NCBI GenBank assembly: GCA_023267655.1
Contig: JAHFMV010000001.1
Coordinates: forward strand, 31,954 to 95,953
DNA from: Candidatus Kaiserbacteria bacterium
GTDB lineage: Bacteria > Patescibacteriota > Minisyncoccia > Phycocordibacterales > UBA2100
Reading direction: 5' to 3'
Length of the DNA: 64,000 bases
Shown: in pieces, positions 3,571 to 43,567 of the stretch
Layout of the letters: every line of letters starts with the position of its first letter
How positions within the stretch are numbered: position 1 is the stretch's first letter
The notes under the pieces: generated by a model
What the model was told of the DNA's origin: nothing
Databases searched by the model: none
What the model saw: the letters and a program-made list of their open reading frames with translations, nothing else
Translations under genes and position numbers: made by a program

Positions 3571-3613
3571 TCACCAAGGCAACTTTGCAGACCTGCAAAA
3601 ATGCGTCGCTGAC

Positions 3614-11930: not shown

Positions 11931-11955
11931 TGCGAAATCATGGTATAATCGCGAA

Positions 11956-12243
11956 ATGCGCATTACGGAAGCACAGGCACGGCTGCTGAAAGAAGGGGTC
12001 CGCGAATACCTGCCACAGGCGAGTGTGTATCTGTTCGGGTCGCGTGCGGACGATGCGAAGCGTGGCGGCGACATTGACGTGCTTGTCGTAGGGGAGCGGC
12101 CGCTTCAACCTTTAGAGAGCAGCCGCGTCAAGGCGAGATTTTATGAACGTTTCGGAGAGCAGAAAATCGACATTGTGAGTTTCGCAGAGGGCGAACATAC
12201 CACGTTCCGCGATCTGATAGAATCCGAGGCGGTGCCTCTCTGA
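11956..12243 (+). CDS. mntA: MntA-like nucleotidyltransferase antitoxin (second copy)
   Basis: MRITEAQARLLKEGVREYLPQASVYLFGSRADDAKRGGDIDVLVVGE carries the GS…D.D motif. It is preceded by TGgTATAAT at 11941-11949, only 6 nt before the ATG, which implies a leaderless mRNA. Confidence 0.7.
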   Translation: MRITEAQARLLKEGVREYLPQASVYLFGSRADDAKRGGDIDVLVVGERPLQPLESSRVKARFYERFGEQKIDIVSFAEGEHTTFRDLIESEAVPL

Positions 12244-14057: not shown

Positions 14058-16174
14058 GCAATGAATGCGTTTTTGAACGCTGCCGAGAATTTCTGTACAT
14101 ATACTTCAAATTCATCGCGTGTCAGGTGGAATCCTGGCATCGGCGTTCCCGTTGTAAGATTGGCGTCGACTATGTAGAGTTTGCCGTCATCCGCGTCTCG
14201 TAGGCAATCGAGCGCACCGAAATCAATACCCATTTTGTTGCAAAAGAGCAGGATTTTCTGTTGCTCGTCCTTCGCGATGTAGTCATCAAGAGGCACCATC
14301 GTCGACGTCTGCGTGTTATCAAAGCGATCGAATGCCGAGCGAATGCGGTACATCATGAACGGAATTTTTCCACCAACTACTTTCACGCGAAGATCAGCGA
14401 CACGATCTCCTTCGCGATTGTTGATGAGTTTCTGATAGATGTAGCCCGGCTGCGGTTCAAGGGGTGCTAGAACAACTTTTCCGTCGTGCTGGGCATTTTC
14501 GTCAGACTTTTGGACGCACTCACCACGGTGCGTGCGCGGATCAATTTTCATGCCGTAGCCGAAGACTTCAGAAAATACTTCCTCTACTTTTTCCTTGCTA
14601 ATGTCGCGCGCTGCGCCGTTGATAAAGCGGCCGCGTCGCGCGAGTTCTTTTTCAGTTTCGTCCTCGGTGCGGATCGTAATGTCTTTGAAGGACATCGCGA
14701 TATCGTACTGCGTGGCCAGATCGTTCGTCATCCTAAGCCCAAGCTCATGGCAGATCGTGTAGTGGACATAGTAGTACTTCGGCAGATCAGGATAAAAGAG
14801 CATGGTGCCGGTTGCGCCGTTTTTGCGCGCGCGGCGGAATCGTTTCCAGCACGTGTATTTGACCCAGAGTTCGTAGGAAATTGCAGCGTAACGCTCTTTC
14901 AGTCGCAATGGGAATCGATACAAGAAAAGTCCGACAAGCGCCGCAGCGGCATTGCCGAGGATCCATGCGATGCCAATACCGGTAAGACCTTGCCCCGTTA
15001 GAAACCTTGTTTCTAACGGGGCGGGGGAAATAAATAAGTAACTTAATCCGATTGTTGTTGTCGCAAAGACGCTATTCACAATGATAAGCGACGTGGAATC
15101 CTTCTTAACTTGGAAGTACGAATTGATGATTGATGATGCGCTGACGACGAGGCCGGCGAGGGCGACGAGTATGAGGAACGTTGTGCCGCCCGCGGCATAC
15201 TGCGCGCCGAAAATATGCAGGATGAAATCGCTCGCGAAGATAAGGACGATGATCGCCGGTGCCATGAAGAGCGTGATGATGCGGATTGCGCTCCGGATAT
15301 GTGCGTCAAACGCCATCTCGTCGTTCGAGCCTTCTGCAAACAGTGCGCGTGTCGTTGCGTACGGGATGACATACAAAAGATTCCCGATCATCATCGCGAT
15401 GTAGTAGTACGCCGCAGGTGCGGGACCGAGTTTGTGTGTGATAAGAAGCGGAAGGACGCTTGCGGGGAGCAGGTTGAGCGAGCTTGCCGCATAATTGCCG
15501 GCCGAATAGTGCCAGACTCTCGCCATGATATCGGTATGGACTTTCAAGCTTGGCCGGTAGTCGAATTTCCACACCAGAGCGGCGATGCTCAAGAGAAATC
15601 CGATTCCTTGCGCGATGCCCGCCGCCGCAAAGATACCGATCGCGCCAAAAGAAACGAAGAAAAAAGGGAACAGCAGCCGTGAAGCCGTGAACAGCGTATT
15701 GATGCCGAGGATGAATTTCGTTTGCCGGCGCGAGAGGAACACAGAATCAGTCAGTGTGTTGAGTGCGGTGAGGATGGTGAATAGGATGAAGCCCGCGATG
15801 TACAGCGTGTTCGAGCGCAGAAAAAGCAGCTTTGGGGCAAGGAAGGGAATGAATACTACAAACAGCGTCGAGAGGATTCCGGCTGCGATCGCGACGAGCA
15901 CAAGCGCTGTGTTGATGGTGTCGCTCGGGCGCGTATCGCCGGGAAGGAAGCGCACGAGCGCGGCGTTGAAACCAATCAGACTGATGATGGATATCAGCGT
16001 CATCACCGAAATGAGCGTTGTCGCAAAGCCGACATCTTCCGTCGGATACAAGTGCGCATTGATGAGCCAGAAGAAAAAGCCGAACGCCGCGAGGACCGCG
16101 GTCGCGGACATCAAATAGATTGAGTTCCGGAAAAGACTGTCTTTAAAAAATTTGTGGAATAGAGAGAGAATCAT
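14054..16174 (-). CDS. polysaccharide flippase (MOP/Wzx-like, ~12-14 TM) fused to a C-terminal ATP-grasp-like domain
   Basis: 706-aa ORF. The N-terminal 430 aa are polytopic and match Wzx/polysaccharide_biosynthesis topology. The C-terminal ~270 aa contain …GKIPFMMYRIRSAF…MGIDFGALDCLRDADDGKLYIVDANLTTGTP…, consistent with an ATP-grasp C-domain. There is no stop between the two parts. Confidence 0.65.
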   Translation of the reverse strand: MILSLFHKFFKDSLFRNSIYLMSATAVLAAFGFFFWLINAHLYPTEDVGFATTLISVMTLISIISLIGFNAALVRFLPGDTRPSDTINTALVLVAIAAGILSTLFVVFIPFLAPKLLFLRSNTLYIAGFILFTILTALNTLTDSVFLSRRQTKFILGINTLFTASRLLFPFFFVSFGAIGIFAAAGIAQGIGFLLSIAALVWKFDYRPSLKVHTDIMARVWHYSAGNYAASSLNLLPASVLPLLITHKLGPAPAAYYYIAMMIGNLLYVIPYATTRALFAEGSNDEMAFDAHIRSAIRIITLFMAPAIIVLIFASDFILHIFGAQYAAGGTTFLILVALAGLVVSASSIINSYFQVKKDSTSLIIVNSVFATTTIGLSYLFISPAPLETRFLTGQGLTGIGIAWILGNAAAALVGLFLYRFPLRLKERYAAISYELWVKYTCWKRFRRARKNGATGTMLFYPDLPKYYYVHYTICHELGLRMTNDLATQYDIAMSFKDITIRTEDETEKELARRGRFINGAARDISKEKVEEVFSEVFGYGMKIDPRTHRGECVQKSDENAQHDGKVVLAPLEPQPGYIYQKLINNREGDRVADLRVKVVGGKIPFMMYRIRSAFDRFDNTQTSTMVPLDDYIAKDEQQKILLFCNKMGIDFGALDCLRDADDGKLYIVDANLTTGTPMPGFHLTRDEFEVYVQKFSAAFKNAFIA

Positions 16175-26319: not shown

Positions 26320-26724
26320 ATGCGCTTTGTTGCGATAACTGCCATCTTTCTTGCATTGATAGCCGCCGGGATGGTGTTCATCAATCATTCGACAGACCAA
26401 AGCATCGCGGCGCGCATACAAATCCTCGGCATCTGGCGCAGTACGCAAGATTCGAAATTCACGCGTGAATTTAAAAATGACGGCAAGGTCATCGATGCCT
26501 ACGAGGGATCTTCGCTCAATTCCGACGGACGATGGGTGATTTTTACTAAACAGATGCCGATTGATGCGCTTCCGGAGGCCCTCGAGGATGGTGCAGTCTA
26601 TCTCTCAATAGCGGCACCAGAGAGCGAAGCACAATATTTTAAGATCGCATCAATCAATTCGCACGAATTGCAGCTTGTATATTTGGATCGCGGCGGTATC
26701 ATCTCGTTCACGAAAATCCAGTGA
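26320..26724 (+). CDS. hypothetical membrane-anchored/secreted protein
   Basis: MRFVAITAIFLALIAAGMVFINH… N-terminal anchor, then a soluble domain. Confidence 0.45.
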   Translation: MRFVAITAIFLALIAAGMVFINHSTDQSIAARIQILGIWRSTQDSKFTREFKNDGKVIDAYEGSSLNSDGRWVIFTKQMPIDALPEALEDGAVYLSIAAPESEAQYFKIASINSHELQLVYLDRGGIISFTKIQ

Positions 26725-28903: not shown

Positions 28904-29956
28904 TCAAATCTTAATAACTTTCTCCCAGCTGCGTCCTTCAACACCAAAGTGTCCATACGTTGCTGTTTCGCGGAAGATGGGTTTGCGGAGCTCCAGTCGT
29001 TTGATGATTTCTTGCGGGCGGAAGTTGAAGTGTTTGTGGACGATTTTTGAGAGGTCTTTGCCTTTGTCGTTGAATGCTTCAACCATAACCGGGTCAACGC
29101 GACCGATCGCATAAGCGACCGAGACGAGCACTTTTTTACCGTAACCGTTGGCAACGAGATTCTTCGCGACGAAGCGGCACATATACGCGGCCGAACGATC
29201 AACCTTTGTCGAATCTTTGCCGGAGAATGCGCCACCACCGTGCGGCATGAGGCCGCCGTAGGTATCCACCATGATCTTGCGACCGGTGAGGCCGGCGTCG
29301 GCAGCAAAGCCGCCGACCTCGAATTTGCCGGTCGGGTTTACGAGGATTTCGATGTTTTTCAAATCGCCGAGGACTGGTTTGAACAAATGCTTAATCAAAT
29401 CCTTGCGAATTTGTTCCTGCGACACATTTTTCGCATGCTGCGTCGAGCAAAGCGCTGTCACGACTTTGCCATCTTTAATCGTCACTTGCGTTTTCCCGTC
29501 AGGCTTAATCCACGACAAAGTCTTTTCACGGCGGAGCTTTTCAAGTCGACGCGCGAGTTTGTTCGCAAGTACAACTCCAAGCGGCAGCATTTCATCCGTC
29601 TCGTCCGTCGCGTAGCCGTACATAATGCCTTGATCACCCGCACCGCCGGTATCGACGCCTTGCGCGATGTTCTGGCTTTGTTTTGCGACGGTGTTTAAAA
29701 TTTTCAATTTCTCCGTGTAGCCGATTGATTTGTAGACATTGGCCGCGATTTTCGCGAAATCAACTTTCGCATTTGTCGTAACTTCGCCGCCGATCATAAG
29801 TGTTCCGTGCGAGCCAAAGGTCTCCACGGCGACACGCGAGCGCGGATCTTGCTCTAAACACGCGTCTAAAATTGCGTCAGAAATCTGGTCACATACTTTG
29901 TCCGGATGTCCGGATGTTACGGATTCAGTCGTGTACGTCTTTAAAAGATGAAGCAT
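28904..29956 (-). CDS. metK: S-adenosylmethionine synthetase (archaeal-type/short bacterial form)
   Basis: ESVTSGHPDKVCDQISDAILDACL, GGGAFSGKDSTKVDRS. Confidence 0.9.
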   Translation of the reverse strand: MLHLLKTYTTESVTSGHPDKVCDQISDAILDACLEQDPRSRVAVETFGSHGTLMIGGEVTTNAKVDFAKIAANVYKSIGYTEKLKILNTVAKQSQNIAQGVDTGGAGDQGIMYGYATDETDEMLPLGVVLANKLARRLEKLRREKTLSWIKPDGKTQVTIKDGKVVTALCSTQHAKNVSQEQIRKDLIKHLFKPVLGDLKNIEILVNPTGKFEVGGFAADAGLTGRKIMVDTYGGLMPHGGGAFSGKDSTKVDRSAAYMCRFVAKNLVANGYGKKVLVSVAYAIGRVDPVMVEAFNDKGKDLSKIVHKHFNFRPQEIIKRLELRKPIFRETATYGHFGVEGRSWEKVIKI

Positions 29957-29961
29957 AGTTA

Positions 29962-30105
29962 TATGTATAAATTAAATAATCTCCCTGCAGGGAGATTCTT
30001 GACGAGAGTATCTGCCCCTTTCGGGTCTGGGGGCACCGTTTCTTTCGAAGGTTGCCAGCGGGTCTACGAGCCAGTTCTCTCTCCGCACTCTGGATACGAT
30101 ATGGG
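29962..30105 (-). ncRNA. SAM-I riboswitch (S-box) with intrinsic terminator, in the 5' leader of metK
   Basis: Minus-strand RNA …AUCCAGAGUGCGGAGAGAGAACUGGCUCGUAGACCCGCUGGCAACC…GGUGCCCCCAGACCCGAAAGGGGCAGAUACUCUCGUC… aligns with the S-box consensus (…AUCaAGAGnGGcGGAGGGAcUGGCCCgaUGAaaCCCgGCAACC…GGUGC…AGAU…). It is followed by the terminator hairpin cucccugcagggag plus a U-tract just upstream of the metK ATG. Confidence 0.75.
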
Positions 30106-30181
30106 GCGTGTCATGAAAATATAACCCCCACCGGTTATTAGCGCAAGCGGGTGTCGTCGGCTATGATGTGGACTACCTGAT

Positions 30182-31126
30182 ATGAAAAAAGTCGTACGAA
30201 TCGGCGGCGGCTCAAGCGGCTATACGATCCTGCGCGGTCTAAAGCAATACCCCTTAGATATCACGGCGATTGTCAACATGTTCGATTCGGGTGGTTCTGC
30301 AGGAGTGCTTCGCGACGAGCTCGGTATTTTACCTCCCGGCGATGTTCGTCGCGCACTTGCCGCACTTGCCGACGGCAAGCAAGGCACAATTCTGCGTGAA
30401 TTGTTTAACTTCAGATTTAAAGAGGAAGGGTCGGTGAATGGTCATAGTTTCGGCAATCTGTTCCTCGCGGCACTTTCGTCAATCTACGGTAGCGATATTG
30501 AAGCGATTCGCAAGGCATCACAAATTCTCAATCTCAAAGGGAAAGTCTTGCCGGTCTCACTCGATAAATCGCATATTCATGCGACACTTGAAGATGGCAC
30601 AAAAATAGTCGGCGAGACCAATATTGATATCCCCAAACACGACGGTAGCATTCCAATCAAAAAAATATTCCTAGAACCACCCGCAAAAATTTTTGATGAA
30701 GCGAAACAGGCAATTCTCGATGCTGATATTATTGTCATCGGCCCCGGCGATTTGTATACGTCAATCATTCCGAATCTTCTCGCGAAAGGCGTCCCCGAAG
30801 CATTGCAAAAGAGTAAGGCGAAGAAAGTGGTGGTCTGTAACCTCATGACCAAGTGGGGAGAAACCCACGGTTTTTGCGCGTCCGACATGGTCAAGGAACT
30901 CTTGCGCTATAGCGGACTCAAACGATTTGATTATGCGATTTGTAACACGAAAGAGCCGAGCCAGAAACTCATCAAGGCCTACGAAAAAGAAAAGAAGTAT
31001 CCAATGAAATGCGATGCCGACCTTTCAAAATACGCAAAAGAAATAGTCACCGGCGACTTTTTCTCCGAGGCCGATATCGCGCGTCATGATGCGGATAAAT
31101 TGGCGAAAGTAATCGCAGATCTTTGA
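30182..31126 (+). CDS. YvcK/CofD-family protein (UPF0052; gluconeogenesis factor / 2-phospho-L-lactate transferase-like)
   Basis: MFDSGGSAGVLRDELGILPPGDVRR is the family signature. Confidence 0.8.
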   Translation: MKKVVRIGGGSSGYTILRGLKQYPLDITAIVNMFDSGGSAGVLRDELGILPPGDVRRALAALADGKQGTILRELFNFRFKEEGSVNGHSFGNLFLAALSSIYGSDIEAIRKASQILNLKGKVLPVSLDKSHIHATLEDGTKIVGETNIDIPKHDGSIPIKKIFLEPPAKIFDEAKQAILDADIIVIGPGDLYTSIIPNLLAKGVPEALQKSKAKKVVVCNLMTKWGETHGFCASDMVKELLRYSGLKRFDYAICNTKEPSQKLIKAYEKEKKYPMKCDADLSKYAKEIVTGDFFSEADIARHDADKLAKVIADL

Positions 31127-31548
31127 TGATTCCGTTCATCGTACTCGCACTTGCTGCTTTTCTACTGCATCTCGCGTGGGAGCGTGTGCACGTCCAGCTG
31201 TATACGGGATATGAAAAAATGGAAGGCCTCCTTCCCGTGTACGTGTTTGCAACGATCGGGGATGTTGCCTACACGCTCTGTGCCGTCTTTTTTGTGGCGA
31301 TCCTTGCGCGTGATCTTGCATGGTTTGTGCGCGGCGTAAGCACGGGTGAGTATCTGCTCCTCGCTCTACTCGGATTTTGCATCGCGCTTTTTGTCGAATA
31401 CAAAGCGAAGTATTATAAGAAATGGGAATATCTGCCCGAAATGCCGATCATTCCGTTTCTGCGCGTCGGGCTCTCGCCGATCGCGCAGATGACAGTGTTG
31501 TTGCCATTCTCCGTCTTTATTACTACTATCATCCTCATACATCTATGA
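31123..31548 (+). CDS. hypothetical polytopic membrane protein
   Basis: 141 aa with 4 TM segments; ATGA overlap with the upstream gene. Confidence 0.45.
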   Translation: MMIPFIVLALAAFLLHLAWERVHVQLYTGYEKMEGLLPVYVFATIGDVAYTLCAVFFVAILARDLAWFVRGVSTGEYLLLALLGFCIALFVEYKAKYYKKWEYLPEMPIIPFLRVGLSPIAQMTVLLPFSVFITTIILIHL

Positions 31549-32003
31549 ATACATCAAAATTGCTGGTCATCCTTGTGGTCGTTGGTCTCGTGGTTGCAGG
31601 TGTCTGGTTTGGCACACGTCGTGCGACTCCGCCACTGGTGACCGTGCCGCCTACCGTGGAAGCAACTTACGTGAACGCATCGGCCGATCTTGTTGTCGTT
31701 TCGAGTCCGCTCCCGGGAGCAACCGTACCCGCGATGTTTACCGTCACCGGACAAGCGCGCGGTACGTGGTATTTCGAAGCGTCATTTCCTCTTGAAGTCG
31801 TTTCGGCGTCGGGAGAGCAGCTCGTACAAATGCCGGTGCAAGCACAGGGTGAGTGGATGACGACAAACTTCGTACCGTTTAGTGCACAAATAACATTGCC
31901 AGCGACCTACAAAGGCGCAGCGAAAATTATCCTCCGCAACGACAATCCATCGGGCCTGCCAGAAAATGAGAAACGTCTGACGATTCCCGTTGTCATTCAA
32001 TAA
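31545..32003 (+). CDS. secreted/anchored hypothetical protein (Gmad2 Ig-like-domain-like)
   Basis: MNTSKLLVILVVVGLVVAGVWF… then a beta-rich domain. Confidence 0.5.
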   Translation: MNTSKLLVILVVVGLVVAGVWFGTRRATPPLVTVPPTVEATYVNASADLVVVSSPLPGATVPAMFTVTGQARGTWYFEASFPLEVVSASGEQLVQMPVQAQGEWMTTNFVPFSAQITLPATYKGAAKIILRNDNPSGLPENEKRLTIPVVIQ

Positions 32004-32007
32004 ATCA

Positions 32008-32040
32008 GAAGGGCGGCCGCTTACGCGTCCGCCCTCTTTT
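32008..32040. terminator. bidirectional rho-independent terminator
   Basis: gggcggccgcttacgcgtccgccc followed by tctttt. Confidence 0.5.
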
Positions 32041-32056
32041 CACAACGGTGTGATGC

Positions 32057-32449
32057 TCACATGGCGGGTGGGAGAAATATACAGATCAGCCGGAACGACC
32101 ACCCAGTTCCTACCCAGGTTTTCCCGATACACACATGCATGTTGTTGTCCCTCGATTCTCGCTTTGGAAAATTTGCCGGCACGAAGACGCTTTGTCCTCG
32201 CTCGTCCGTAACTTCCATACCAAGCATGGTGGTTGCATTCGCGGACGGGCCGGGCAGCGTCACGGTCTTGCTCACCGGTATTGCCGTCACGACCTTAGAA
32301 CAGTCCATTCCGGAACAACATTCCATGGGATACCAGTCATGTGCCGATACCGTCATGTGGACAACGACCGGTATCACGAACGTGAAGAAAAACAGTGTCG
32401 CCACGAAGACCAGCATGGCCAGTAGACGCTTTCGGATTTTTCGGGACAT
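32057..32449 (-). CDS. hypothetical small Cys-containing membrane-anchored protein
   Basis: N-terminal TM (LLAMLVFVATLFFFTFVIPVVV), then a domain with a CC…C…C pattern. Confidence 0.45.
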   Translation of the reverse strand: MSRKIRKRLLAMLVFVATLFFFTFVIPVVVHMTVSAHDWYPMECCSGMDCSKVVTAIPVSKTVTLPGPSANATTMLGMEVTDERGQSVFVPANFPKRESRDNNMHVCIGKTWVGTGWSFRLICIFLPPAM

Positions 32450-32594
32450 ACCCGGCTCCTTTCGTGTTGAGGGGAAACTCGTTTCTATGCAAAATTCATT
32501 CTATTTTCACCTTACGCCTCTTTCGAAAATACGCAAGCTGTTGAAAACAAAGTACTGTGATACGGTGCAATAAGTAGCCACTTGGAGAGCGATC

Positions 32595-33164
32595 ATGTTC
32601 GACACACCCTTCGTTCTTTTGGATACCGAATATACAGCGTGGGAAGGCAGTAGGGAGAGCGCGTGGAGCGGCTCTGGCGAATATCGGGAGATGATCCAGA
32701 TCGGCGCGATCATTGTGGATGAAAATCTGCGAGAGAGGTCGCCGTTCATGTGCTATGTGCGACCGGTGAAGAATCCGATCCTCTCGGATTTCATCATCGA
32801 GTTGACGGGCATCTCGCAGGAGATGGTCGATGTACGGGGAATTTCGCTCGACCAGGCACTGAAAGTCCTCTCGGTCGCAGTGCAAGGATTGCCGATCTAT
32901 TGTTACGGCAGGGACGGGCAATTTTTACGAGAAAATTGTGCGCTGCTTGGAATCCATTTCCCGTTTGAGCCTGAACGCTTCATCGATATTCGTCCGTATC
33001 TGAAGGCACCGCTCGCAGTAGAACATATCGACATTACGCAGTATTCAAGCGGAGAACTTGTACAAGCCTTCGGACTCGAGGGGGGACGGGCGCACGATGC
33101 GCTCAATGATGTTCAAAACCTGCTCAAGATAATTCAAGTACTACGCTCTCGCGGCCGCTTATAG
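32595..33164 (+). CDS. DEDDh 3'-5' exonuclease (DnaQ-like)
   Basis: Exo I LLDTEYT, Exo III HDALNDV. Confidence 0.7.
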   Translation: MFDTPFVLLDTEYTAWEGSRESAWSGSGEYREMIQIGAIIVDENLRERSPFMCYVRPVKNPILSDFIIELTGISQEMVDVRGISLDQALKVLSVAVQGLPIYCYGRDGQFLRENCALLGIHFPFEPERFIDIRPYLKAPLAVEHIDITQYSSGELVQAFGLEGGRAHDALNDVQNLLKIIQVLRSRGRL

Positions 33165-33186
33165 CGGCCGCATCCTTTATGCTACG

Positions 33187-33858
33187 ATGCGGCGGATGAA
33201 AAAAGAGACGGAGAGGAAAGAGCGGATGACGAAGATCCTGAAATACCTCAAAAAGACGTACCACACGCCGAAGACGGAGCTGCGCTACTCAACACCGTTC
33301 CAGCTTGTTGTTGCAGTCATGCTCTCGGCGCAGTGCACGGATAAATTGGTGAATAGAGTGACAGAGAAACTTTTTAAAAAATACAAAACGCCGAAAGATT
33401 TTGCGACGGCGAACCTCGCCGAATTCACTAGGGAGATTTCGAGCGCTTCTTTTTTCCGGAATAAGGCGAAGCATGTCATTGCTGCCGCGAAAATCGTCGC
33501 AGACGATTTTCGCGGCCACCTCCCCCGCACGGCAGAAGAACTCCAAAAACTCCCCGGCGTTGGCTACAAAACCGCGCACGTCATCCTCGGCGAACTGTAC
33601 GAAATCTGGGAAGGCATCCCGACCGACACGCATGTAAAGAGATTCGCCCGCAAATTCGACCTCACCGACAACACCGATCTTAAAAAAATTTCCCACGATC
33701 TCGAACGCCTCGTCCCGAAAAAGAATTGGAAATACGTCAACAATGGCTTCGTCCTCTACGGCCGTTACGTCTGCAAAGCCAACAAGCATGACTGCGCGCA
33801 GCATCCGCTTACAAAACTGTGGCCAGCGGCTGGAAGCCGCTGGCCGAAAACGAAATGA
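33187..33858 (+). CDS. nth: endonuclease III (HhH-GPD DNA glycosylase/lyase)
   Basis: LVVAVMLSAQCTDKLVNRVT, LPGVGYKTAHVIL, and a C-terminal Cys cluster CKANKHDCAQHPL (partial FeS motif). Confidence 0.8.
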   Translation: MRRMKKETERKERMTKILKYLKKTYHTPKTELRYSTPFQLVVAVMLSAQCTDKLVNRVTEKLFKKYKTPKDFATANLAEFTREISSASFFRNKAKHVIAAAKIVADDFRGHLPRTAEELQKLPGVGYKTAHVILGELYEIWEGIPTDTHVKRFARKFDLTDNTDLKKISHDLERLVPKKNWKYVNNGFVLYGRYVCKANKHDCAQHPLTKLWPAAGSRWPKTK

Positions 33859-34205
33859 TCTACTTTGCACCCATGTGCGGACGATCGAAATTTTCTGGGA
33901 TCGGCGAGCGTGCCGGAAGATCTCGCTCATTTTCGCACGTTTCGCACGACAAGGTGCCGTCGGTCTGAAGCCCTTTCCCTCGCTGGTGTTTGGCGCAAAA
34001 ACCGGTTGACGTCGGGGCGCACACCGCGCATGCGAGTATCAAGCTATCACCGTGATAGATCTCGACGACTTTGCCCGTCATGCCTGTGCATCCATCTTTC
34101 ACTCGCAGACCGCATCCTTGCATGTCACACTCCCTGGTTGCCAGTCCCGACTATACCTCTGTCAACGAATTTCTGCAAAACCGTGCCTCATAGTAGGATT
34201 CAAAC

Positions 34206-34898
34206 ATGAAAAGCGTGCAAAAAGTCGCCGTGTTCGACATTGACGGCACGATCATCCGCTCGTCGCTGTTTGTAGAACTCACTGAAGAACTCGTGAGGCG
34301 CAAAATTCTGCCGCACATAGCAAAAGATGAATACGAAGCACAGCACAAAAGGTGGATCGAACGCGAAGGGAATTATGACGACTACATTTGGGCGATGGTG
34401 CGATCGTTCAAGAAAAATATCAAAGGTGTGTACTACGGCGATGTCGCAGACACCGCAAAAGATGTTGTGAAAGAACAGAAAAAACGCACATATCGCTACA
34501 CGCGCGATCTCATTCAGGATTTAAAAAAGAAAGGGTACTTTCTCCTCGCGATTTCTCATTCACCGAAAACCATCCTCGATTATTTCTGTCCGACCATGGG
34601 TTTCGACAAGGCCTACGGATTTCTCTACGACATCGGTCCGGAGGATAATTTTACGGGCGAGGTCATTGACGAGCACCTGATGGCGAACAAGGCAAACATC
34701 CTGAAGCGTGCCATCGAAAAACAAGGCCTCACCCTCAAAGGATCCATCGGTGTCGGCGATACGGAGAGCGACATCGCATTCTTAGAACTTGTCGAAAACC
34801 CCATCTGCTTTAATCCGAATTCAAAGTTGTATCGTCATGCGAAGCGGGAGAAATGGAGAGTCGTCGTTGAACGCAAGGATGTTGTCTACGAGCTTTAA
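34206..34898 (+). CDS. HAD-superfamily hydrolase (subfamily IB, phosphoserine-phosphatase-like)
   Basis: DxDGT motif (VAVFDIDGTI), motif III K, motif IV GVGDTESD. Confidence 0.75.
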   Translation: MKSVQKVAVFDIDGTIIRSSLFVELTEELVRRKILPHIAKDEYEAQHKRWIEREGNYDDYIWAMVRSFKKNIKGVYYGDVADTAKDVVKEQKKRTYRYTRDLIQDLKKKGYFLLAISHSPKTILDYFCPTMGFDKAYGFLYDIGPEDNFTGEVIDEHLMANKANILKRAIEKQGLTLKGSIGVGDTESDIAFLELVENPICFNPNSKLYRHAKREKWRVVVERKDVVYEL

Positions 34899-34955
34899 AT
34901 ATGGCATATTGCACCTAGCGGCTGTTGACCGCGCAGACCAAAGAGGACAAGACAA

Positions 34956-35155
34956 TGAAGCCATGTGAAGCCCTCAAGGCCCTTCGATCCAGAGCGTTTG
35001 AAGATTCGCACAAGGTAGGATCTGAGCATCCTATTGCACTAGTGCCGAACGAAGATGGGAGTCTGTCGCTGATAGACAGGAATTCCTCAAAGCCAACCAA
35101 GCCTGTCATGTCAGCGCGGGAGGTCAATCAGTTTTTTGGAGTTTGGTCGCGATAG
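34956..35155 (+). CDS. hypothetical small protein
   Basis: ATG preceded by AGAGGA; 66 aa. Confidence 0.3.
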
Positions 35156-35216
35156 CGGTCGGGCTCGAAGCGCAAACGAGGGTGGACGATGTCCACCCTC
35201 TCTCTATAATAATCAA

Positions 35217-36068
35217 GTGAGAAATAAAGAATCAGATTTTGTCCAGTTAGTTTTGAAATATTTCCGAGTTAGCGGTCGCAACGCGTTACCATGGCGCGCG
35301 ACTCGTGCTCCGTACAAAATCCTCGTCTCTGAAATCATGCTGCAGCAGACGCAGGTGGATAGAGTGATTCCTTACTTTACGAAGTGGATGAAGAAATTTC
35401 CGACGGTGCAATCACTTGCAAAAGCACCACTCTCTGATGTTTTGAAGGAATGGAGCGGGCTTGGATATAACCGCCGAGCGAAGTTATTGCGGGAGTGTGC
35501 CAAAGAAATCGTGGAAAAGCACGGCGGAAAAGTCCCGAAGGACTTTTCCGCCCTCGTGGGATTGCCCGCCATCGGCCCTTACACCGCCGGAGCCATCCGC
35601 GCATTCGCATTCAACGAACCGGAGGTATTCATCGAAACCAACATCCGTGCAGCACTCATCCACCATTTTTTCCCGCGGTCGAAAAAAGTACCTGACACAA
35701 AACTCATCCCGATCTTGAAATTGTTACTCCTTAATCCCGACAGTCTGACTATCGGTACCGATAGTCAGACTGTCGGGATTGGTTCGCGGGAGTGGTATAG
35801 CGCACTCATGGACTACGGCGCACATATCAAAAAAACCAATCCCAACCCATCACGCCGCAGCACGCATCACACCCGCCAATCGCCGTTTGAAGGCAGTCTT
35901 CGCCAATACCGCGGCATTATCTTACGCCGTCTGCTTGATGGTCCGATTGCTCACGAGGTGCTTCTTAAAGTCGAAACGGAACAATCATATTTTCTCGAAC
36001 TCGCGCTTCGTGATTTGGAACGAGAAGGAATGATAAAAAAGAAAAAAGGAAAATGGTGGATTGCATGA
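35217..36068 (+). CDS. MutY-like HhH-GPD adenine DNA glycosylase homolog (no recognisable FeS-cluster loop)
   Basis: …ALPWRATRAPYKILVSEIMLQQTQVDRVIPYFTKWMKKFPT… is the MutY N-terminal signature; GLGYNRRAKLL, GLPAIGPYTAGAI. Start uncertain (GTG at 35217; the track's TTG is at 35136). It contains the 48-bp palindrome listed below. Confidence 0.65.
   Translation: MRNKESDFVQLVLKYFRVSGRNALPWRATRAPYKILVSEIMLQQTQVDRVIPYFTKWMKKFPTVQSLAKAPLSDVLKEWSGLGYNRRAKLLRECAKEIVEKHGGKVPKDFSALVGLPAIGPYTAGAIRAFAFNEPEVFIETNIRAALIHHFFPRSKKVPDTKLIPILKLLLLNPDSLTIGTDSQTVGIGSREWYSALMDYGAHIKKTNPNPSRRSTHHTRQSPFEGSLRQYRGIILRRLLDGPIAHEVLLKVETEQSYFLELALRDLEREGMIKKKKGKWWIA
35733..35780. repeat. perfect 48-bp palindrome inside the mutY-like CDS
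   Basis: aatcccgacagtctgactatcggt|accgatagtcagactgtcgggatt is an exact reverse complement around a central GGTACC. It is in frame (NPDSLTIGTDSQTVGI) and falls in a loop before the conserved …EWYSALMDYGA helix. Confidence 0.9.
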
Positions 36069-36074
36069 AAGATG

Positions 36075-36102
36075 ATGCGGCACGGGAGCAATCCGTGCCG
36101 CA
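36075..36102. terminator. hairpin terminator between convergent genes
   Basis: gcggcacgg-gagcaa-ccgtgccgc then aataaa. Confidence 0.45.
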
Positions 36103-36108
36103 ATAAAT

Positions 36109-36378
36109 CTAGGCCGCTTGTGCTTCCTCGCGTAGCCTAAGCGCTGCACTTGCGATAATTTGGTGCGCGCGACGACCTATGACAACACGAAAGGCCGCGA
36201 CAAGTTCCTCCTCTCCTCCGAAGATGCTACGCATGCCACCTGAGTTCAAAATGCCGTATTCGTCGGCATCTTCTTCTGCTCGCTTGACGACTGCCTGCGC
36301 CACCTCTTGTTTGATGATCCAGTTTCCATAGAGAAACTGGTCAGAAAAGAACTTCTTTACGTTCTCCACTGTATACAT
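36109..36378 (-). CDS. hypothetical protein co-transcribed downstream of rnj
   Basis: ATG preceded by GGAGGA (MYTVENVKKFFSDQ…); the ORF track extends it to a TTG overlapping the rnj stop. Confidence 0.45.
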   Translation of the reverse strand: MYTVENVKKFFSDQFLYGNWIIKQEVAQAVVKRAEEDADEYGILNSGGMRSIFGGEEELVAAFRVVIGRRAHQIIASAALRLREEAQAA

Positions 36379-36434
36379 TGGATCCTCCGTGAGTATGAGA
36401 GCGTGAAGGGAATCTACCACGCGTGGCGTAATTC

Positions 36435-38390
36435 TCAAACACTCACAATCACCGGAATAACGATCGGACGCTTTTGCGTTTTCATCAGGAGGAATCGTGA
36501 GACATTTTCGGCGAGGTCTTCGCGGGCCATGTCGAGGTCCGCTGCGCGCGGGTTTTTCATCGACTGCTCGACTGATTTGCGGATGATGAGGCGCGTCTGG
36601 TCCATGAGATCTTTGTTATCGCGCAAGTACACGAATCCACGCGAAATGATGTCGGGGGATTTGTGGAGGCGTCCCGTGCGACGATCGACGGTTGCGACGA
36701 CGACGCAGAAACCTTCTTGCCCGAGCGCTTTGCGATCGCGCATGAGGACGTCGGAGAGTTCCGAGACCGTGTGACCTTCGACGACACGCAATTCATTCGG
36801 CGCTTTGACCGCAAGTGCCTTGATCTTCTCGCCGTCGGTAATTTCCACGATCGATGAATTGTCGGCGATGACAATATTCTGCCGCGCGACGCCGAGTTCT
36901 TCTGCAACATCAGCGTGCACACGGAGCATGAAGTGGTAGCCGTGAACAGGCACGAAGAATTTTTCTTTGACCTGTTTGTGGATCCACACCGCTTCTTCGC
37001 GGTTACCGTGGCCGGACGCGTGCACGTCAGATGCGTGGTACGTGATGATACGCGCGCCTTGTCGAGAGAGGTTGTCTTTCAACTTCTGCACCGCGCGTTC
37101 GTTGCCGGGAATGACCGACGATGAGAGCACGATGGTGTCCGTCGGCTGCAAGCGGATGTATTTGTGCGATTTGTTGCCGATGCGAGCGAGCGACGCGAAC
37201 TCGTCGCCTTGTGCGCCGGTCGCAAGAATCACGACTTTTTCCGGCGGAAATCGGTCGAGGTCTTCGACATTAATCACCGTCTCGTCACGGTACTTGATGA
37301 GGCCGAGCTCGCGGGCGATCTCGATATTTGTGCGCATCGAGCGGCCGTCGATGACCACCTTTTTCGCATTCTCTTCGGCGAACATCATGACACGGATGAG
37401 GCGCTCCAAGTGCGATGCGAACATCGCGATAATGAGCCGTCCCTTCGCTTCTGTGATGATTTTCTCGAGGGTTACATACACAGTCGATTCAGGAATAGAA
37501 AATCCCGGCTGCCAGACGTTGGTTGAGTCCATAAGGAGCGCGAGTACTTTGCGATCTTTAAAGATTGCAAATTCGCGCTGTTCTTCGGCCGACGGAATGC
37601 CATCTTTGTGATTGAGTTTGATGTCACCGGTAAAGACGACGTCGCCCCATTTGGTTTCGATGATTATACCCATCGAATCAGGAACCGTGTGCGTGACACC
37701 AAAGAAGCGCAACGTGTGATCGCCGAGCTTGATGACTTCATCCTTTTCGACTTCACGGATTTGCACCGGCACTGCCTGCGCAAATTCCTCTTGGCGTTTC
37801 TTGATCATCATGCCGGTGAGGCGACGCGTGTAGATCATGGGGTTTCCGATGCGGTCGATGATGTACGGAATGCCACCGATGTGGTCGAGGTGACCGTGCG
37901 AGATGAGGAGTCCGCGCACTTTGTCGCGGCGCTCTTCGAGGTAGCCGGTGTTTGGCAAGATGTAATCAATGCCCGGGGTGTCGTCTTCTTTAAATTGGAA
38001 TCCGGCATCTAGGACAAAGATGTCGTTGCCGACTTCGATTGCGGTCATATTGCGGCCGATTTCTTCAACGCCGCCGAGCGGGATGATGCGCACGACGTTA
38101 TCCGCGATTGGCGGAATTGGCGCGTTCGGGCGCTGTCTCTCGCGTGTCGTCGGAGACGCGTGCTCGACGCGCACTTTTTGGTTGCGTCGCGGTCGTGGGC
38201 GCATCGATCCGCCGCCAAAGCGACGTCCGCCGCCCGGGCGCGGACCATGTGGTCCGGCTGGTCGCGGGCCGTGTGGGCGCGGAGTGAACGGACCCGCTGG
38301 TCGCGGTCCATGGGGTCGAGGAGAAGTCGCGGGCGCGGGCATTGGTGCGGGCGCGCCGGAATTCTGGGGTTCAGGTGTAAACATGTTCAT
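36435..38390 (-). CDS. rnj: ribonuclease J (metallo-beta-lactamase/beta-CASP) with an ~110-aa R/G/P-rich N-terminal extension
   Basis: HGHLDHIGG motif, beta-CASP and RNA-metabolising MBL blocks. The N-terminus carries PRPHGPRPAGP x3 encoded by tandem nucleotide repeats at 38230-38340. Confidence 0.9.
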   Translation of the reverse strand: MNMFTPEPQNSGAPAPMPAPATSPRPHGPRPAGPFTPRPHGPRPAGPHGPRPGGGRRFGGGSMRPRPRRNQKVRVEHASPTTRERQRPNAPIPPIADNVVRIIPLGGVEEIGRNMTAIEVGNDIFVLDAGFQFKEDDTPGIDYILPNTGYLEERRDKVRGLLISHGHLDHIGGIPYIIDRIGNPMIYTRRLTGMMIKKRQEEFAQAVPVQIREVEKDEVIKLGDHTLRFFGVTHTVPDSMGIIIETKWGDVVFTGDIKLNHKDGIPSAEEQREFAIFKDRKVLALLMDSTNVWQPGFSIPESTVYVTLEKIITEAKGRLIIAMFASHLERLIRVMMFAEENAKKVVIDGRSMRTNIEIARELGLIKYRDETVINVEDLDRFPPEKVVILATGAQGDEFASLARIGNKSHKYIRLQPTDTIVLSSSVIPGNERAVQKLKDNLSRQGARIITYHASDVHASGHGNREEAVWIHKQVKEKFFVPVHGYHFMLRVHADVAEELGVARQNIVIADNSSIVEITDGEKIKALAVKAPNELRVVEGHTVSELSDVLMRDRKALGQEGFCVVVATVDRRTGRLHKSPDIISRGFVYLRDNKDLMDQTRLIIRKSVEQSMKNPRAADLDMAREDLAENVSRFLLMKTQKRPIVIPVIVSV

Positions 38391-38402
38391 AAGGGTAGGT
38401 AT

Positions 38403-38426
38403 TAGCCACTAGGGTTTAGCCACTAG
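38403..38426 (-). promoter_or_regulatory. tandem CTAGTGGCTA motif in the rnj 5' UTR (shared with groES and groEL)
   Basis: In gene sense: ccctagtggctaaaccctagtggctaa, 12 nt upstream of the rnj ATG. Confidence 0.45.
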
Positions 38427-38517
38427 GGAAATACGATTTAATAATGCGATTAATAATTTTTTCTAATAATTTTGTAACAATTGAATTTTCTAGAAGCTAG
38501 AAGCTTGTCGCTAGAAG

Positions 38518-40362
38518 CTATTTTGAAAATATATTCCACACACGCTCAGTGTCGCGGTACCACCGGTACACGTCATTGAAACGATCCGACGGGACGGTCA
38601 GTGTCCCGATGTCCACGCCGTGGATTCGGGAAGGAACGATGTAGGCAAGTTGTGGTGAGTAGAGAAACACGGCAGGCCTATCCGAGTCAATAGCTGCGAG
38701 AAATTGCTGGAAATATGCTTCGCGCTGTTTCGGATCGGTTTCTGCGCGCGCGAGGGCAAGTTCTTTGTCTGCTGCCGTTGAAGTGTAGAGCGCCAAATTC
38801 AATCCCGGATCGTTGCGTTGTGATGAATGCCAGAAGGCAAACAAGTCGAGCGAACGACCGACGACTTCGCCAAAGAGAATCGCATCGTACGCACGCGGTC
38901 GCAAGATCGTCGTGTTAAATTCTGACAGAGGATACACCTGCACGCTTGTCTGTATACCGATCGCATTCCACGCGTCCGCGACTGCGTGCGCGGTTGCAAC
39001 CAATTCTTCTGTATCCGGCGTTGCGAGCGCGAGCGAGAGTTCTTGTTTGTCTTTTTTCCACACACCATCGGGGGCCTGTCCCGTGGAACCCGTCTGTTCA
39101 ACTGGGGTCGTACTCGACGTTGCCGTGAATTTCCATCCGCCATTTATGAGTGCTTGCTTTGCGGCTTCCGGATCGGCCGCAGCTACACTCGATGACGCTT
39201 CGCCGGAGAAAAGTCCGGGCGGGATCGGACCACCCAGCGCATCGCCGTAGCCGCCGAGCACCTGGTTGATGATCGTATTTTTATCAACCGCGAGTGTGAG
39301 AGCTTTTCGAACCGCGGCATTCGCGAGAACCGGCGCATGGTTTTGGTTTAAGAAAACGCCAAACGTGCGCGCGAGCGAAATTTTCTTCAAATCCGCGCTC
39401 TCTTGCAAGCCGCGCGAAAGGTTTTTCGGCGACGACGCGACCAAACTTTCGATATCGCCGTTTTCATATGCGGCGACAAGGTCGTCGTCATTGGCGTACG
39501 TGCGATACGTTATTTTGGAAATATTCGGCTCGCCGAGCGCAAATTTGGCAAACGACGCGAGTTTGTATTCGTTCGGCGCACCGGTCGCATCGAGGCTTAC
39601 GCTGGTCGCACGATACGGACCGCTCCCGACAGGATGTGTGTTCAAAGAACTAAATGCGAATTCGTCGGCAGATACGTTTTCCCACAGCGCCTTCGGCAGG
39701 ATGCCGAGCGTTGCGTTCTCGCGAAATGGCGCATAGGCGTGGGGAAGTGTAAAGACGACCGTGCGCGCATCCGGTGCTGATGCCGAGACACCTTCCCAAT
39801 CGGCACGGCGCGGACTTTTCGTGTCAGGGTTTTGCGCGAGATCGACGGTAAAGAGAACATCAGCGGAGGTAAGCGGCGTCCCGTCGTGGAAGGTGAGGTT
39901 TGGCCGCAAATGGAACGTGTACACGGTGCCATCGGCCGAAATATCCATGCTCTCGGCAATATCCGGCGTATAGACGCCATCATTTCCTGCGCGCAGAAGT
40001 CCCGAGTACACAAGTGCGGTCAAATCTTCGTCAGTTTGCGAGGCGGCGAGAAGCGGATTGATGAAGCGGGGCGTGCCCACGGCGCCTTCGGTGAGAGAGC
40101 CGCCACGAGTCGGTACTTCGGTCGAGACTGCTTGGTTCACGTTTGCGAGCAAGATAAATGCGCTGATCGCGAGCGCGATGGAACAGACATACAAAAAGAG
40201 GCGCTCGGACGGCGAGAAGGTGCGAAGCAACACGTCGAGACCTTTCAGCGGCCGGCGCCACGATGATTGTGCGCGTATCGTAAGTGGTTCGCTCTCCAAA
40301 GGGATGCGACCGGCCTCACGGTTTTTTATAGCTTCAAGTGAAAGCTGTATTTCTGGTTCCAT
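38518..40362 (-). CDS. ABC transporter substrate-binding protein, family 5 (oligopeptide/nickel OppA/DppA-like), membrane-anchored
   Basis: 614 aa; N-terminal TM then SBP_bac_5 blocks (…GGSLTEGAVGTPRFINPLLA…YSGLL…, …FNDVYRW…). Confidence 0.75.
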   Translation of the reverse strand: MEPEIQLSLEAIKNREAGRIPLESEPLTIRAQSSWRRPLKGLDVLLRTFSPSERLFLYVCSIALAISAFILLANVNQAVSTEVPTRGGSLTEGAVGTPRFINPLLAASQTDEDLTALVYSGLLRAGNDGVYTPDIAESMDISADGTVYTFHLRPNLTFHDGTPLTSADVLFTVDLAQNPDTKSPRRADWEGVSASAPDARTVVFTLPHAYAPFRENATLGILPKALWENVSADEFAFSSLNTHPVGSGPYRATSVSLDATGAPNEYKLASFAKFALGEPNISKITYRTYANDDDLVAAYENGDIESLVASSPKNLSRGLQESADLKKISLARTFGVFLNQNHAPVLANAAVRKALTLAVDKNTIINQVLGGYGDALGGPIPPGLFSGEASSSVAAADPEAAKQALINGGWKFTATSSTTPVEQTGSTGQAPDGVWKKDKQELSLALATPDTEELVATAHAVADAWNAIGIQTSVQVYPLSEFNTTILRPRAYDAILFGEVVGRSLDLFAFWHSSQRNDPGLNLALYTSTAADKELALARAETDPKQREAYFQQFLAAIDSDRPAVFLYSPQLAYIVPSRIHGVDIGTLTVPSDRFNDVYRWYRDTERVWNIFSK

Positions 40363-40570
40363 GCCCGGTTAGTACAATTTCGAATAATTCCTGCGGCGGC
40401 AAAATGCTCGGCAGGTTCGAAGGTCTAATAATGTTGCAGATATTTTCTTTACGTCGTTTTTCATCATAATGAGCGATTCGAAATTGTCCTACCGGGTATG
40501 CAAACGAAATGAAAGTGCGGAAGATTTTTCCGCAACAAGCGAGTAGCCCTAATAACGGAGGCCTGCTTGA

Positions 40571-40801
40571 TTAACTAATGAGTAAGTGAATGAGTGCCGA
40601 CAAGGCAAAGAGGACAGCGATAACAATGGTAGCGCGGAAAAGGGTCTTTTCCAACCCCCTACGTGTGTGGAAACCGGAGCTGAAGTTGTCAGCCCCAAAG
40701 GCGCCTCCCAAGGACGCTCCAGTTCGCTGCAATAGCACGCAAACCATGAGGAGTACCGAGAGGACGATCTGCACATATGGCAGTACCGTCGCGAGTTCCA
40801 T
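40571..40801 (-). CDS. secG: preprotein translocase subunit SecG
   Basis: MELATVLPYVQIVLSVLLMVCVLLQ…G..GGAFG…FRATIVIAVLFALSALIHLL. Confidence 0.8.
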   Translation of the reverse strand: MELATVLPYVQIVLSVLLMVCVLLQRTGASLGGAFGADNFSSGFHTRRGLEKTLFRATIVIAVLFALSALIHLLIS

Positions 40802-41370
40802 GGGGAAGATAGTATCAAATTGTAGATTGGTGGTCAAGGATGGCGCTCGCGGCACTGCGGCGCATGCCTCTCTCGGGTCGCTATCTGCGCGTGCTCGCGC
40901 AGCGCTCGGGCTCGGCCTCGTCAGGCCTGCGCAGACCCTCGCGAAGCACGACGCCGCACTGCCGTCTCGCTTCTTCCGATTTCGTAGTAGTAAAGTTGAA
41001 GCCGGCCTCGCGCTTCGCGCTCGGCCGGCTCCCGCGTCCTATGGGCCATCATATTTAATGACATCTTACGTAGAGTCTGTCAAGAGTGCACAACTGCTTT
41101 GACTTCACTTCGGGGCAGGAGTACCGTATCTGCTACTCGGATATGGTGCCGAGCATGTTCTGGAGGGTTCATGCACAAGCATAAACAGAGGCGAGCGCGT
41201 AGGACGTTTATGGCATGGTATCGGGCTAATCAGCGGAGGCGCCGTCCACGAGCGCGGGTGCACATAGAAACGGCTCCGGTTTTCACGTTGTTCTGGCGTA
41301 AGTTGGTTCAGCTTTTTAGGGTCGAAAGACCGCGTCGGCGAATGGCCTAGCGCAAAGAGGCGAGAAGATT

Positions 41371-41400
41371 GGCGGCGTCCACGAGGCGCCGCTGTTTTTT
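41371..41400 (+). terminator. rho-independent terminator (+ strand) with no annotated upstream + gene
   Basis: ggcggcgtccacgaggcgccgc followed by tgtttttt. Confidence 0.5.
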
Positions 41401-41401
41401 G

Positions 41402-41430
41402 TTGACACCGGGGTAAATTTCGTAAATAAT
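41402..41430 (+). promoter_or_regulatory. sigma70-like promoter for groES-groEL
   Basis: TTGACA-N17-TAAATA(AT). Confidence 0.45.
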
Positions 41431-41452
41431 ACCCGCGATTTATAAGTATCTG

Positions 41453-41483
41453 CTAGTGGCTAAACCCTAGTGGCTAGTGGCTA
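41453..41483 (+). promoter_or_regulatory. three CTAGTGGCTA units in the groES 5' UTR
   Basis: ctagtggctaaaccctagtggctagtggcta, ending 5 nt before the groES ATG. Confidence 0.45.
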
Positions 41484-41488
41484 TTTTT

Positions 41489-41863
41489 ATGGCAAAAAAC
41501 AAGAAGAAAGCAAAAAAGTCGAAGAAACCAGTCAAGAAAACTATCCGCAAAGTGGTCGCACAATTTGGCATTCAGCCGGTCGGCGACAAGGTGCTCGTGA
41601 GACCGCAAGAGGTGGAACAGAAAACTCCTTCTGGCCTTATCATCCCGGACACCGTTAAAAAGGACAAAATGATGACGGGCGTTGTCGTTGCCGTCGGCAC
41701 CGGCCGCGTGAGCGAAACAGGCGCACGCATTCCACTTTCTGTTTCTGAAGGCGACGTGATTTATTTCAGCCGCGGATGGGACGAGGAGGGCAGCAAATTT
41801 CCGTGGAAAGGCGAAGACTATTATCTCGTGTCGGAAAGCGACATCAAAGCAGTTATTAATTGA
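41489..41863 (+). CDS. groES: co-chaperonin GroES with a ~25-aa lysine-rich N-terminal extension
   Basis: MAKNKKKAKKSKKPVKKTIRKVVAQF-GIQPVGDKVLVRP… (the canonical GroES begins at I-x-P-L-G-D-R-V-L-V); ends GEDYYLVSESDIKAVIN. Confidence 0.85.
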   Translation: MAKNKKKAKKSKKPVKKTIRKVVAQFGIQPVGDKVLVRPQEVEQKTPSGLIIPDTVKKDKMMTGVVVAVGTGRVSETGARIPLSVSEGDVIYFSRGWDEEGSKFPWKGEDYYLVSESDIKAVIN

Positions 41864-41869
41864 ATTTCC

Positions 41870-43567
<1,698 letters not shown>

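Follow-up and report, generated by a model that had tools for sequence, protein, structure and literature searches.

The MutYX-type gene and its palindrome

The stretch of DNA analysed here (the window) comprises 64,000 nucleotides of the genome of an uncultured ultra-small bacterium, Candidatus Kaiserbacteria (contig JAHFMV010000001.1, positions 31,954 to 95,953), and carries on its plus strand, at 35217..36068, a gene for a 283-aa adenine DNA glycosylase, whose coding sequence contains a perfect palindrome of 48 bp at 35733-35780. Three starts are available for this gene: the longest open reading frame (ORF) begins at 35136, the ENA gene call followed here begins with a GTG codon at 35217, and the NCBI call begins at an internal Met codon at 35337, which gives a protein of 243 aa. 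A promoter-like sequence, TGGACG-16-TATAAT, is found before the gene at 35183-35210. The protein contains the HhH-GPD domain (Pfam ID PF00730, E=1.8e-17) and scores under the cut-off of the TIGR01084 mutY model. Its best solved relative is PDB 8uuc_A (E=1.1e-57), with residues 23-243 aligned, including the motif HHTRQSxFEGSxRQ. 8UUC is a structure of MutYX, an adenine glycosylase that is clusterless and whose C-terminal domain is distinct (PMC12631127). There is one cysteine in the 283 aa and no Cys4 iron-sulfur motif. The HhH-GPD domain, the missing Cys4 motif and the homology to 8UUC through the connector and the X domain identify the host gene as one of the MutYX type. The named homologs of the glycosylase belong to the Patescibacteria (Paceibacterota, Minisyncoccia, Kaiserbacteria).

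The palindrome, AATCCCGACAGTCTGACTATCGGT|ACCGATAGTCAGACTGTCGGGATT, is composed of two 24-nt arms with a complementarity of 100% and 0 nt between them, is centred on GGTACC, and is translated in frame as NPDSLTIGTDSQTVGI (no strand is assigned to the palindromes and hairpins described here). One of its three reading frames is without a stop, and this is the frame of the ORF 35136..36068 (+). An earlier note, made from the sequence alone, had described an exact 24+24 palindrome lying in frame, which is borne out by the sequence, the pairing of the arms and the frame of the ORF. The palindrome is real and non-random, far beyond what chance would provide: the second-longest perfect palindrome of the window has 10-nt arms, the maximum arm in 50 shuffles ranges from 6 to 11 nt, and the 24-nt arm occurs only here in the window at up to 3 mismatches, with 0 occurrences expected from 100 shuffles. 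As a single strand, it is predicted to fold into one long hairpin, with -50.1 kcal/mol as RNA (z -8.6) and -28.6 kcal/mol as DNA (z -9.9). Each arm is itself quasi-palindromic, and the 48 bp consist of two 19-nt units with a period of 21 bp, namely, unit 1 at 35737..35755 (CCGACAGTC-T-GACTATCGG) and unit 2 at 35758..35776 (CCGATAGTC-A-GACTGTCGG).

The AlphaFold 2 (AF2) model of the glycosylase has a mean predicted local distance difference test (pLDDT) score of 92.8 and places the palindrome-encoded residues 173-188 in a coil between the helices 160-172 and 190-207, where they fall in the two 10-residue blocks with the lowest pLDDT (means of 63 and 71). The 16 residues are predicted to be a disordered, low-confidence loop. 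In the alignment with 8UUC, most of them are unmatched and stand opposite a gap in the solved chain. Between ETNIR and MDYG there are 53 aa in the window and 39-40 aa in most homologs, so that about 13 codons net have been gained; compared with the closest relative, the segment has 7 codons more. A search of a protein database with a 48-aa loop query gave no match. The earlier note had proposed an alignment with MutY orthologs and had located the segment in a surface loop just before the conserved REWYSALMDYG helix. The alignment of homologs confirms this position and identifies the segment as an insertion relative to most orthologs, and the coil and its low pLDDT agree with a surface loop. 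The further statement that 16 codons were added holds in that there is an insertion, although not all 16 are extra.

Spacer-less perfect palindromes are a known signature of artefacts, and the earlier note had considered a chimeric fold-back read. That the palindrome is such a chimera, or an inverted duplicate from amplification, is hardly credible. The second member of the protein cluster (P0121, ENA) leads to the contig ERZ27279942 k141_4644727 (45.8 kb, our locus L108) of a separate assembly, which is 100% identical to the window at 29217-42068 (12,852 bp), palindrome included, and the identical glycosylase protein is called in both assemblies. The prefix k141 of a MEGAHIT contig denotes a final k of 141, so that single 141-mers span the palindrome and both of its flanks, and the identity of this contig effectively refutes an assembly artefact. 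The NCBI contig has a length of 160.5 kb, the palindrome lies mid-contig, and the gene continues correctly in frame on either side. The agreement between ENA and NCBI demonstrates a reproducible assembly; the two assemblies may share reads and so are not independent samples. Independent sampling comes from the assemblies of three other lineages (L001, L033, and L109), which carry homologous palindromes.

Homologous palindromes and mirrored changes

The closest relative is L001, from the ENA sample that also yielded the organism of the window; its protein is 83% identical to the window protein in the aligned core. At the same codon position, L001 has one perfect 21-bp unit, CCCGATAGTC-A-GACTATCGGG, which lies between the host codons AAT and GTC and gives the peptide NPDSQTIGV. 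Unit 1 of the window is homologous to this single unit, and unit 2 is in the same frame and collinear with the unit of L001, with that of L033 and with the right-hand unit of L109. One base differs between L001 and unit 2 of the window, and the far arm of the window mirrors that base. In L033, the same loop contains a decayed unit, CGtTAGTC-A-GACTACG. The protein of L109, from a Joint Genome Institute (JGI) sample, is 73% identical to the window protein, and its gene carries a 42-bp double form, CGACAGTCAGACTACCG-C-GGTACC-A-CGGTAGTCTGACTGTCG, with 20/21 pairs intact.

The comparison of the window with L109 shows that the centres of the units are swapped (T/A versus A/T), mirrored on both arms, that one T..A pair is replaced by C..G, again mirrored, and that L109 has 2 extra bases on either side of the centre in a symmetric arrangement. 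The 1 unpaired position of L109 is the sole difference that is not mirrored; against it stand 2 substitution pairs and one 2-nt indel, all of them mirrored. The differences between the lineages being mirrored on both arms, the arms evolve in concert. The intact arms are composed of Watson-Crick pairs throughout, with no G-U pairs, and the palindromes at the loop have a spacer of 0 nt (window, L074, L037, and L080) or 1 nt (L001). Arms of this kind with minimal spacers point to a symmetry process at the DNA level and not to selection on RNA loops.

The left arm of L109 is read in another frame than that of the window (TTVRLP versus PDSLTI), and the swapped centre removes a would-be TGA stop in this frame. 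Since the frames differ, it is not the left-arm peptide that is conserved but the symmetry. Four lineages (window, L001, L033, and L109) read the right-hand unit in the same frame, with the pattern (D/G/V)S(Q/L)T(V/I/T)(G/Y). The insert-free L113 reads CCA AAT GCA AAA GTG TCA CCG at the site. As AAT is present there without an insert, it is host sequence, and the outermost AAT...ATT of the window represents an outward extension of the arms; the ATT, mirror of the host AAT, stands where relatives have GTC or GTG.

The homologous palindromes with their mirrored changes indicate that the element is old. This speaks for the option, one of those named in the earlier note, that the palindrome is maintained, as L001, L033, and L109 have homologous palindromes at the same loop with the differences mirrored on the arms. 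A very recent origin, also considered there, is not supported for the element as a whole, and at most the last symmetrizing event would be recent. The note had further named, as an observation that would speak against it, orthologs encoding the same loop in non-palindromic DNA; the orthologous inserts are palindromic.

The loop harbors unrelated perfect palindromes in other lineages, all of them placed in the roughly 15 nt that precede the REWY codons. These are CCTGCCTGCC|GGCAGGCAGG in L074 and L104, GTCCGCCAG|CTGGCGGAC in L037, ACATTCTG|CAGAATGT in L080, with an imperfect relative in L055, and GCGCGTTCCC-GGTA-GGGAACGCGC in L046, where the length is unchanged. Some lineages have long non-palindromic inserts at the same loop. 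A second insert family with the conserved hairpin TTGTGCA-N9-TGCACAA is found in L110 and L111 (peptides LCKRGLHN... and LCRSGLHN...) and, judged by the peptide, also in P0074, P0096, and P0101, scattered on the gene tree. The points of insertion differ in their nucleotide position, suggesting a tolerance of the loop rather than a site-specific recombinase. From these sequences, the loop is permissive and attracts palindromes. A translational bypass of the insert was rejected, the loop region being in frame and stop-free in 80/80 metagenome-derived and 8/8 other loci. A second shared palindrome site is located in the LAKxxL region, about 217-232 nt upstream of the ETNIR codons, where L001, L029, and L074 have different perfect palindromes (TGGCCAAGTC-C-GACTTGGCCA, ATCTCAAGGG-CTC-CCCTTGAGAT, and CGGCGCGTCGGC-TT-GCCGACGCGCCG).

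Explanations for the persistence of the palindrome

On balance, we lean slightly towards a coding palindrome that a permissive loop can tolerate and that template switching within the hairpin keeps perfect. A short palindromic insert would have entered the permissive surface loop of a MutYX-type gene, a form that L001 would have kept. In the lineage of the window, the insert would have become two units, and the two-unit insert would then have been extended outward into host sequence (AAT...ATT). A change in one arm would be either erased or copied onto the other arm by template switching within the hairpin during replication, described as quasi-palindrome correction. The perfection would in this way be kept without any sequence-specific function, with purifying selection acting only for an open, stop-free frame, and the enzyme would tolerate the insert as the 16 encoded residues form a disordered loop. 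From the patterns described above we infer the template switching, the order of events and the lack of function. The mirrored indel favours template switching, being expected from arm-to-arm copying and very unlikely from independent selected mutations. Quasi-palindrome template switching is experimentally established in E. coli and yeast (PMC7202029, PMC5941160, PMC8794818, PMC6649704) and was invoked for conserved perfect repeats in Proteobacteria, stems of RNA genes and coding palindromes of nematomorph mitochondria (PMC5941160, PMC8794818, PMC6649704). Published precedent exists for the mechanism as well as for the pattern (PMC5941160, PMC8794818, PMC6649704, PMC7202029, PMC3638132).

Several observations weigh against this explanation. 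The core of the palindrome is identical in 34/38 positions between the window and L109, compared with 45% at third codon positions and 70-72% in the flanks. Neutral concerted evolution predicts symmetry and not sequence conservation, so the conservation of the core is unexplained by symmetry alone and could be rescued only by assuming that the right-hand unit is constrained by its peptide and that symmetry passes this constraint to the left arm. On a rough neighbour-joining tree, which shows a star-like radiation and has no support values, the carriers (window with L001, L109, and L033) stand in three places among many insert-free lineages; to explain their scatter, one has to assume that the insert was cleanly lost several times, that a star phylogeny is left unresolved, or that there was lateral spread. 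In the window, in L074 and in the flippase insert described below, both arms are new relative to insert-free homologs, so that a single fold-back copy of an existing flank is insufficient, and no donor for the arms was found outside the palindrome within the 64 kb. Palindromes and 21-bp tandem units are deletion-prone, and a long persistence without benefit is somewhat unexpected.

The 7-mer ATCCCGA is common to 35709-35715 (the conserved upstream codons ATC CCG ATC, the IPIL motif) and to the left end of the palindrome at 35734-35740, and its complement TCGGGAT lies at the right end at 35773-35779. This sharing could be microhomology or a donor trace of the original template switch, a weak indication, as a 7-mer may match by chance and L109 is without it.

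The hairpin could instead be selected for a function, either as an mRNA stem (processing, stability, translation pausing) or as a dyad or cruciform in the DNA to which a dimeric protein binds, and we regard such selection as possible but doubtful. Such a function would fit the conservation of the core compared with the third codon positions, the pairing kept across lineages even where the reading frame differs, the distance of 21 bp between the units, which is about two helical turns, and the extreme predicted stability of -50 kcal/mol; in addition, at least 10 lineages have retained a second hairpin of the same gene (35523-35552), in which 5 pairs are changed on both sides. However, most orthologs have the conserved loop of 39-40 aa without an insert, the number and spacing of the units vary (one, two at 21 bp, or two at 25 bp), and other lineages have unrelated palindromes at slightly shifted positions or none. 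The intact stems are without G-U pairs, RNA hairpins do not need zero-length spacers, and compensatory changes are made equally well by template switching (PMC8794818). An intrinsic terminator was rejected, 35733-35780 being flagged on neither strand and having no U-tract (tails GGTTCGCGG on the plus and AAGGAGTAAC on the minus strand), and the search of Rfam 15 yielded no family, only a chance match to mir-5583 (E=0.22) that reaches 26.4 bits where the gathering score is 80. With regard to a palindromic protein-binding site, the dyad symmetry is present and the 64 kb contain no second site; we take the palindrome not to match the canonical parS consensus. That the palindrome is no neutral by-product but a nucleotide-conserved cassette in the MutYX genes of several Patescibacteria lineages, acting in cis as a hairpin or dyad or spreading laterally as a tiny element, is rather unlikely. 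Such a cassette would account for the roughly 89% conservation where neutral sites are saturated and for the carriers scattered on the tree, and it would imply a signal for RNA processing or pausing, tandem sites that lie two helical turns apart and bind a dimeric protein, or lateral spread.

Repeated insertion or recombination into the same loop of a small non-autonomous mobile or laterally transferred palindromic element, resembling repetitive extragenic palindromic (REP) elements, MITEs (miniature inverted-repeat transposable elements), or Rickettsia palindromic elements (RPEs), is improbable. The patchy distribution on the gene tree, the core being more conserved than its flanks, both arms being new relative to the empty-site homologs L113 and L030, and the likewise patchy second insert family would agree with it, L001 and the organism of the window occur in the same sample, and in-frame palindromic elements are known in Rickettsia (PMC10969869, PMC1779305). 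The searches for further copies speak against it. The earlier note had proposed to look for the 24-mer arm elsewhere; neither the arm nor the 19-nt unit recurs in the 64-kb window when up to 3 mismatches are allowed, and within 248 kb of related loci the core AGTCWGACT is confined to this loop. The scan of 185,579 species-representative genomes gave 26 matches compared with about 17 expected by chance by our own estimate, none of them in a mutY-like gene, and those examined are unrelated intergenic or terminator-type hairpins (L014 and L020 represent a single hairpin in the intergenic space that separates dnaG from a nucleotidyltransferase gene, and L013 and L022 are unrelated). Viral contigs gave 0 matches to the arm or unit, and a dispersed repeat was thus rejected, the window, genome and viral searches having returned only chance or terminator-type hairpins. 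No target-site duplication is visible, as the flanks CTCCTT|...|GGTTCG of the window and CCAAAT|...|GTCAGT of L001 form no direct repeat, the GTAG or CGTC tag of REP elements is missing from the palindromes of both, and 21 bp is far under the known sizes of MITEs and RPEs. Identity between the window and L109 is not raised beside the insert (0.72 upstream and 0.70 downstream, compared with a gene average of 0.68), and a recombination tract carrying the insert between lineages was rejected. Among the origins offered in the earlier note, maintenance stands and the artefact is refuted, whereas the footprint of a MITE-like or hairpin-telomere-like insertion is unsupported. Selection at the protein level for a useful loop or beta-hairpin, with the DNA symmetry incidental, is very improbable: the four lineages share a similar right-hand peptide, but a perfect 24+24 palindrome cannot be incidental, and the peptides encoded by the left half in the window and in L109 are unrelated to each other. 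The segment is a low-confidence coil in the AF2 model and is missing from most orthologs and the solved MutYX structure, and no non-palindromic synonymous versions of the loop were seen in natural relatives.

Other coding hairpins and known palindromes

In the coding sequence of the window there are 11 inverted repeats whose arms measure 9 nt or more, compared with 2.8 +/- 1.5 in synonymous-codon shuffles, about 4-fold more, and 4 whose arms measure 12 nt or more, compared with 0.03. The earlier statement that perfect palindromes as long as that of 48 bp are strongly selected against in coding DNA was therefore overstated; the excess of coding hairpins is seen across the window and is a general property of the genome. 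A specific enrichment in glycosylase genes was rejected, as the raw densities of 0.58/kb versus 0.22/kb in neighbouring ORFs mostly reflect one conserved hairpin counted across related sequences. The second hairpin of the glycosylase gene (35523..35552, 13+4+13, peptide GGKVPKDFSA) has 88.8% of its cells paired across the lineages, with a covariation score reached in 0/500 shuffles. Its compensatory pairs include GGA/TCC versus GGC/GCC, GTC/GAC versus ATC/GAT and, at the outermost position, three different pairs. The sequence after the hairpin on the minus strand is GTGCTTTTCC, and the hairpin was flagged as terminator-like for antisense transcription.

A palindromic insertion is present at 14992..15022 in the flippase-fusion gene (14054-16174, minus strand), with the form 14+3+14 (GCCCCGTTAGAAAC-aag-GTTTCTAACGGGGC). 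It is an 11-aa in-frame insertion (around APLETRFLTG) at the junction of the flippase domain and the C-terminal domain and is missing from 14/14 aligned homologs. The nth gene (33187-33858, plus strand) includes a perfect 15+3+15 hairpin at 33484..33516 (peptide AAKIVADDFRG), presumably without a change in length relative to E. coli Nth. The hairpin at 36076..36102 (10+7+10), 8 nt past the stop of the glycosylase gene, lies between convergent genes and was flagged as terminator-like on the minus strand by the terminator scan; it looks like a shared terminator of these genes. Spacer-less perfect palindromes of 18-20 bp are found at 29978-29997 (AATCTCCCTGCAGGGAGATT, outside long ORFs) and, inside ORFs, at 18711-18728 and 26455-26472. 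The G+C content is 0.57-0.60 with a positive GC skew at positions 1-12000 and about 0.51 with a skew near zero at 16-36 kb, and the AT skew changes sign at about 30-40 kb. The skew profile has no distinct switch at 35.7 kb, and a replication origin or terminus site at the palindrome was set aside.

The coding palindromes of nematomorph mitochondria (Mikhailov et al. 2019, PMC6649704) resemble that of the window in being perfect inverted repeats in translated sequence whose arms are kept perfect by paired substitutions, with gain and loss between species and template switching as the proposed mechanism. They differ in belonging to animal mitochondria, with 110 repeats of at least 15 bp over four genomes, arms of up to 142 bp and an overlap with conserved protein regions (PMC6649704), whereas the palindrome of the window is bacterial, has 24-bp arms and is an insertion in a non-conserved loop, such palindromes numbering a handful per 64 kb. 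The perfect inverted repeats of Proteobacteria (Lavi et al. 2018, PMC5941160; PMC7202029) likewise exceed the null expectation and are conserved in their perfection in orthologous regions, and the mechanism proposed for them, in which imperfect arms are corrected by template switching, is the same and is known from quasi-palindrome mutagenesis in E. coli. Unlike the palindrome of the window, they are mostly short and are not described as in-frame insertions of several codons (PMC5941160); in Patescibacteria the mechanism is an extrapolation. Studies of template-switch hairpins showed that a single event can make a perfect stem and that multi-base compensatory changes arise without selection, as proposed here (Monttinen and Löytynoja 2022, PMC8794818; Löytynoja and Goldman 2017, PMC5453318). 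They concern RNA genes and human mutation clusters, with a nearby donor identified (PMC8794818, PMC5453318). For the palindrome of the window, in contrast, no donor was found outside it, and both arms are new relative to insert-free homologs.

RPEs measure roughly 100-150 bp. Unlike them, the element of the window is 21-48 bp long, single-copy within the sequence searched, and stays perfect. What RPEs and MITE-like repeats (PMC10969869, PMC1779305) have in common with it is in-frame palindromic DNA translated as an extra surface peptide, whereas RPEs form multi-copy families over many genes and lose their repeat identity with time (PMC6649704). REP elements are palindromes of a similar size range (20-40 bp) and differ in being extragenic and high-copy and in having a GTAG or CGTC tag (PMC3733652). 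The palindrome is best filed as a bacterial coding palindrome with concertedly evolving arms, a kind that is already known, and its maintenance may be either purely mutational or selected as well.

Among bacteria, the locus is a clean case of a translated palindrome, long and perfect, that persists over species-level divergence with symmetric changes on both arms. Until now, this pattern was best documented in the mitochondria of nematomorphs and, where short repeats are concerned, in Proteobacteria. For assemblers and annotators, it follows that such palindromes are not to be thrown out as artefacts. Covariation in coding hairpins may stem from arm-to-arm copying at the DNA level, which calls for caution when functional RNA structures are called in metagenomic genomes, and palindromic insertions can supply a new loop peptide to a well-characterised enzyme fold.

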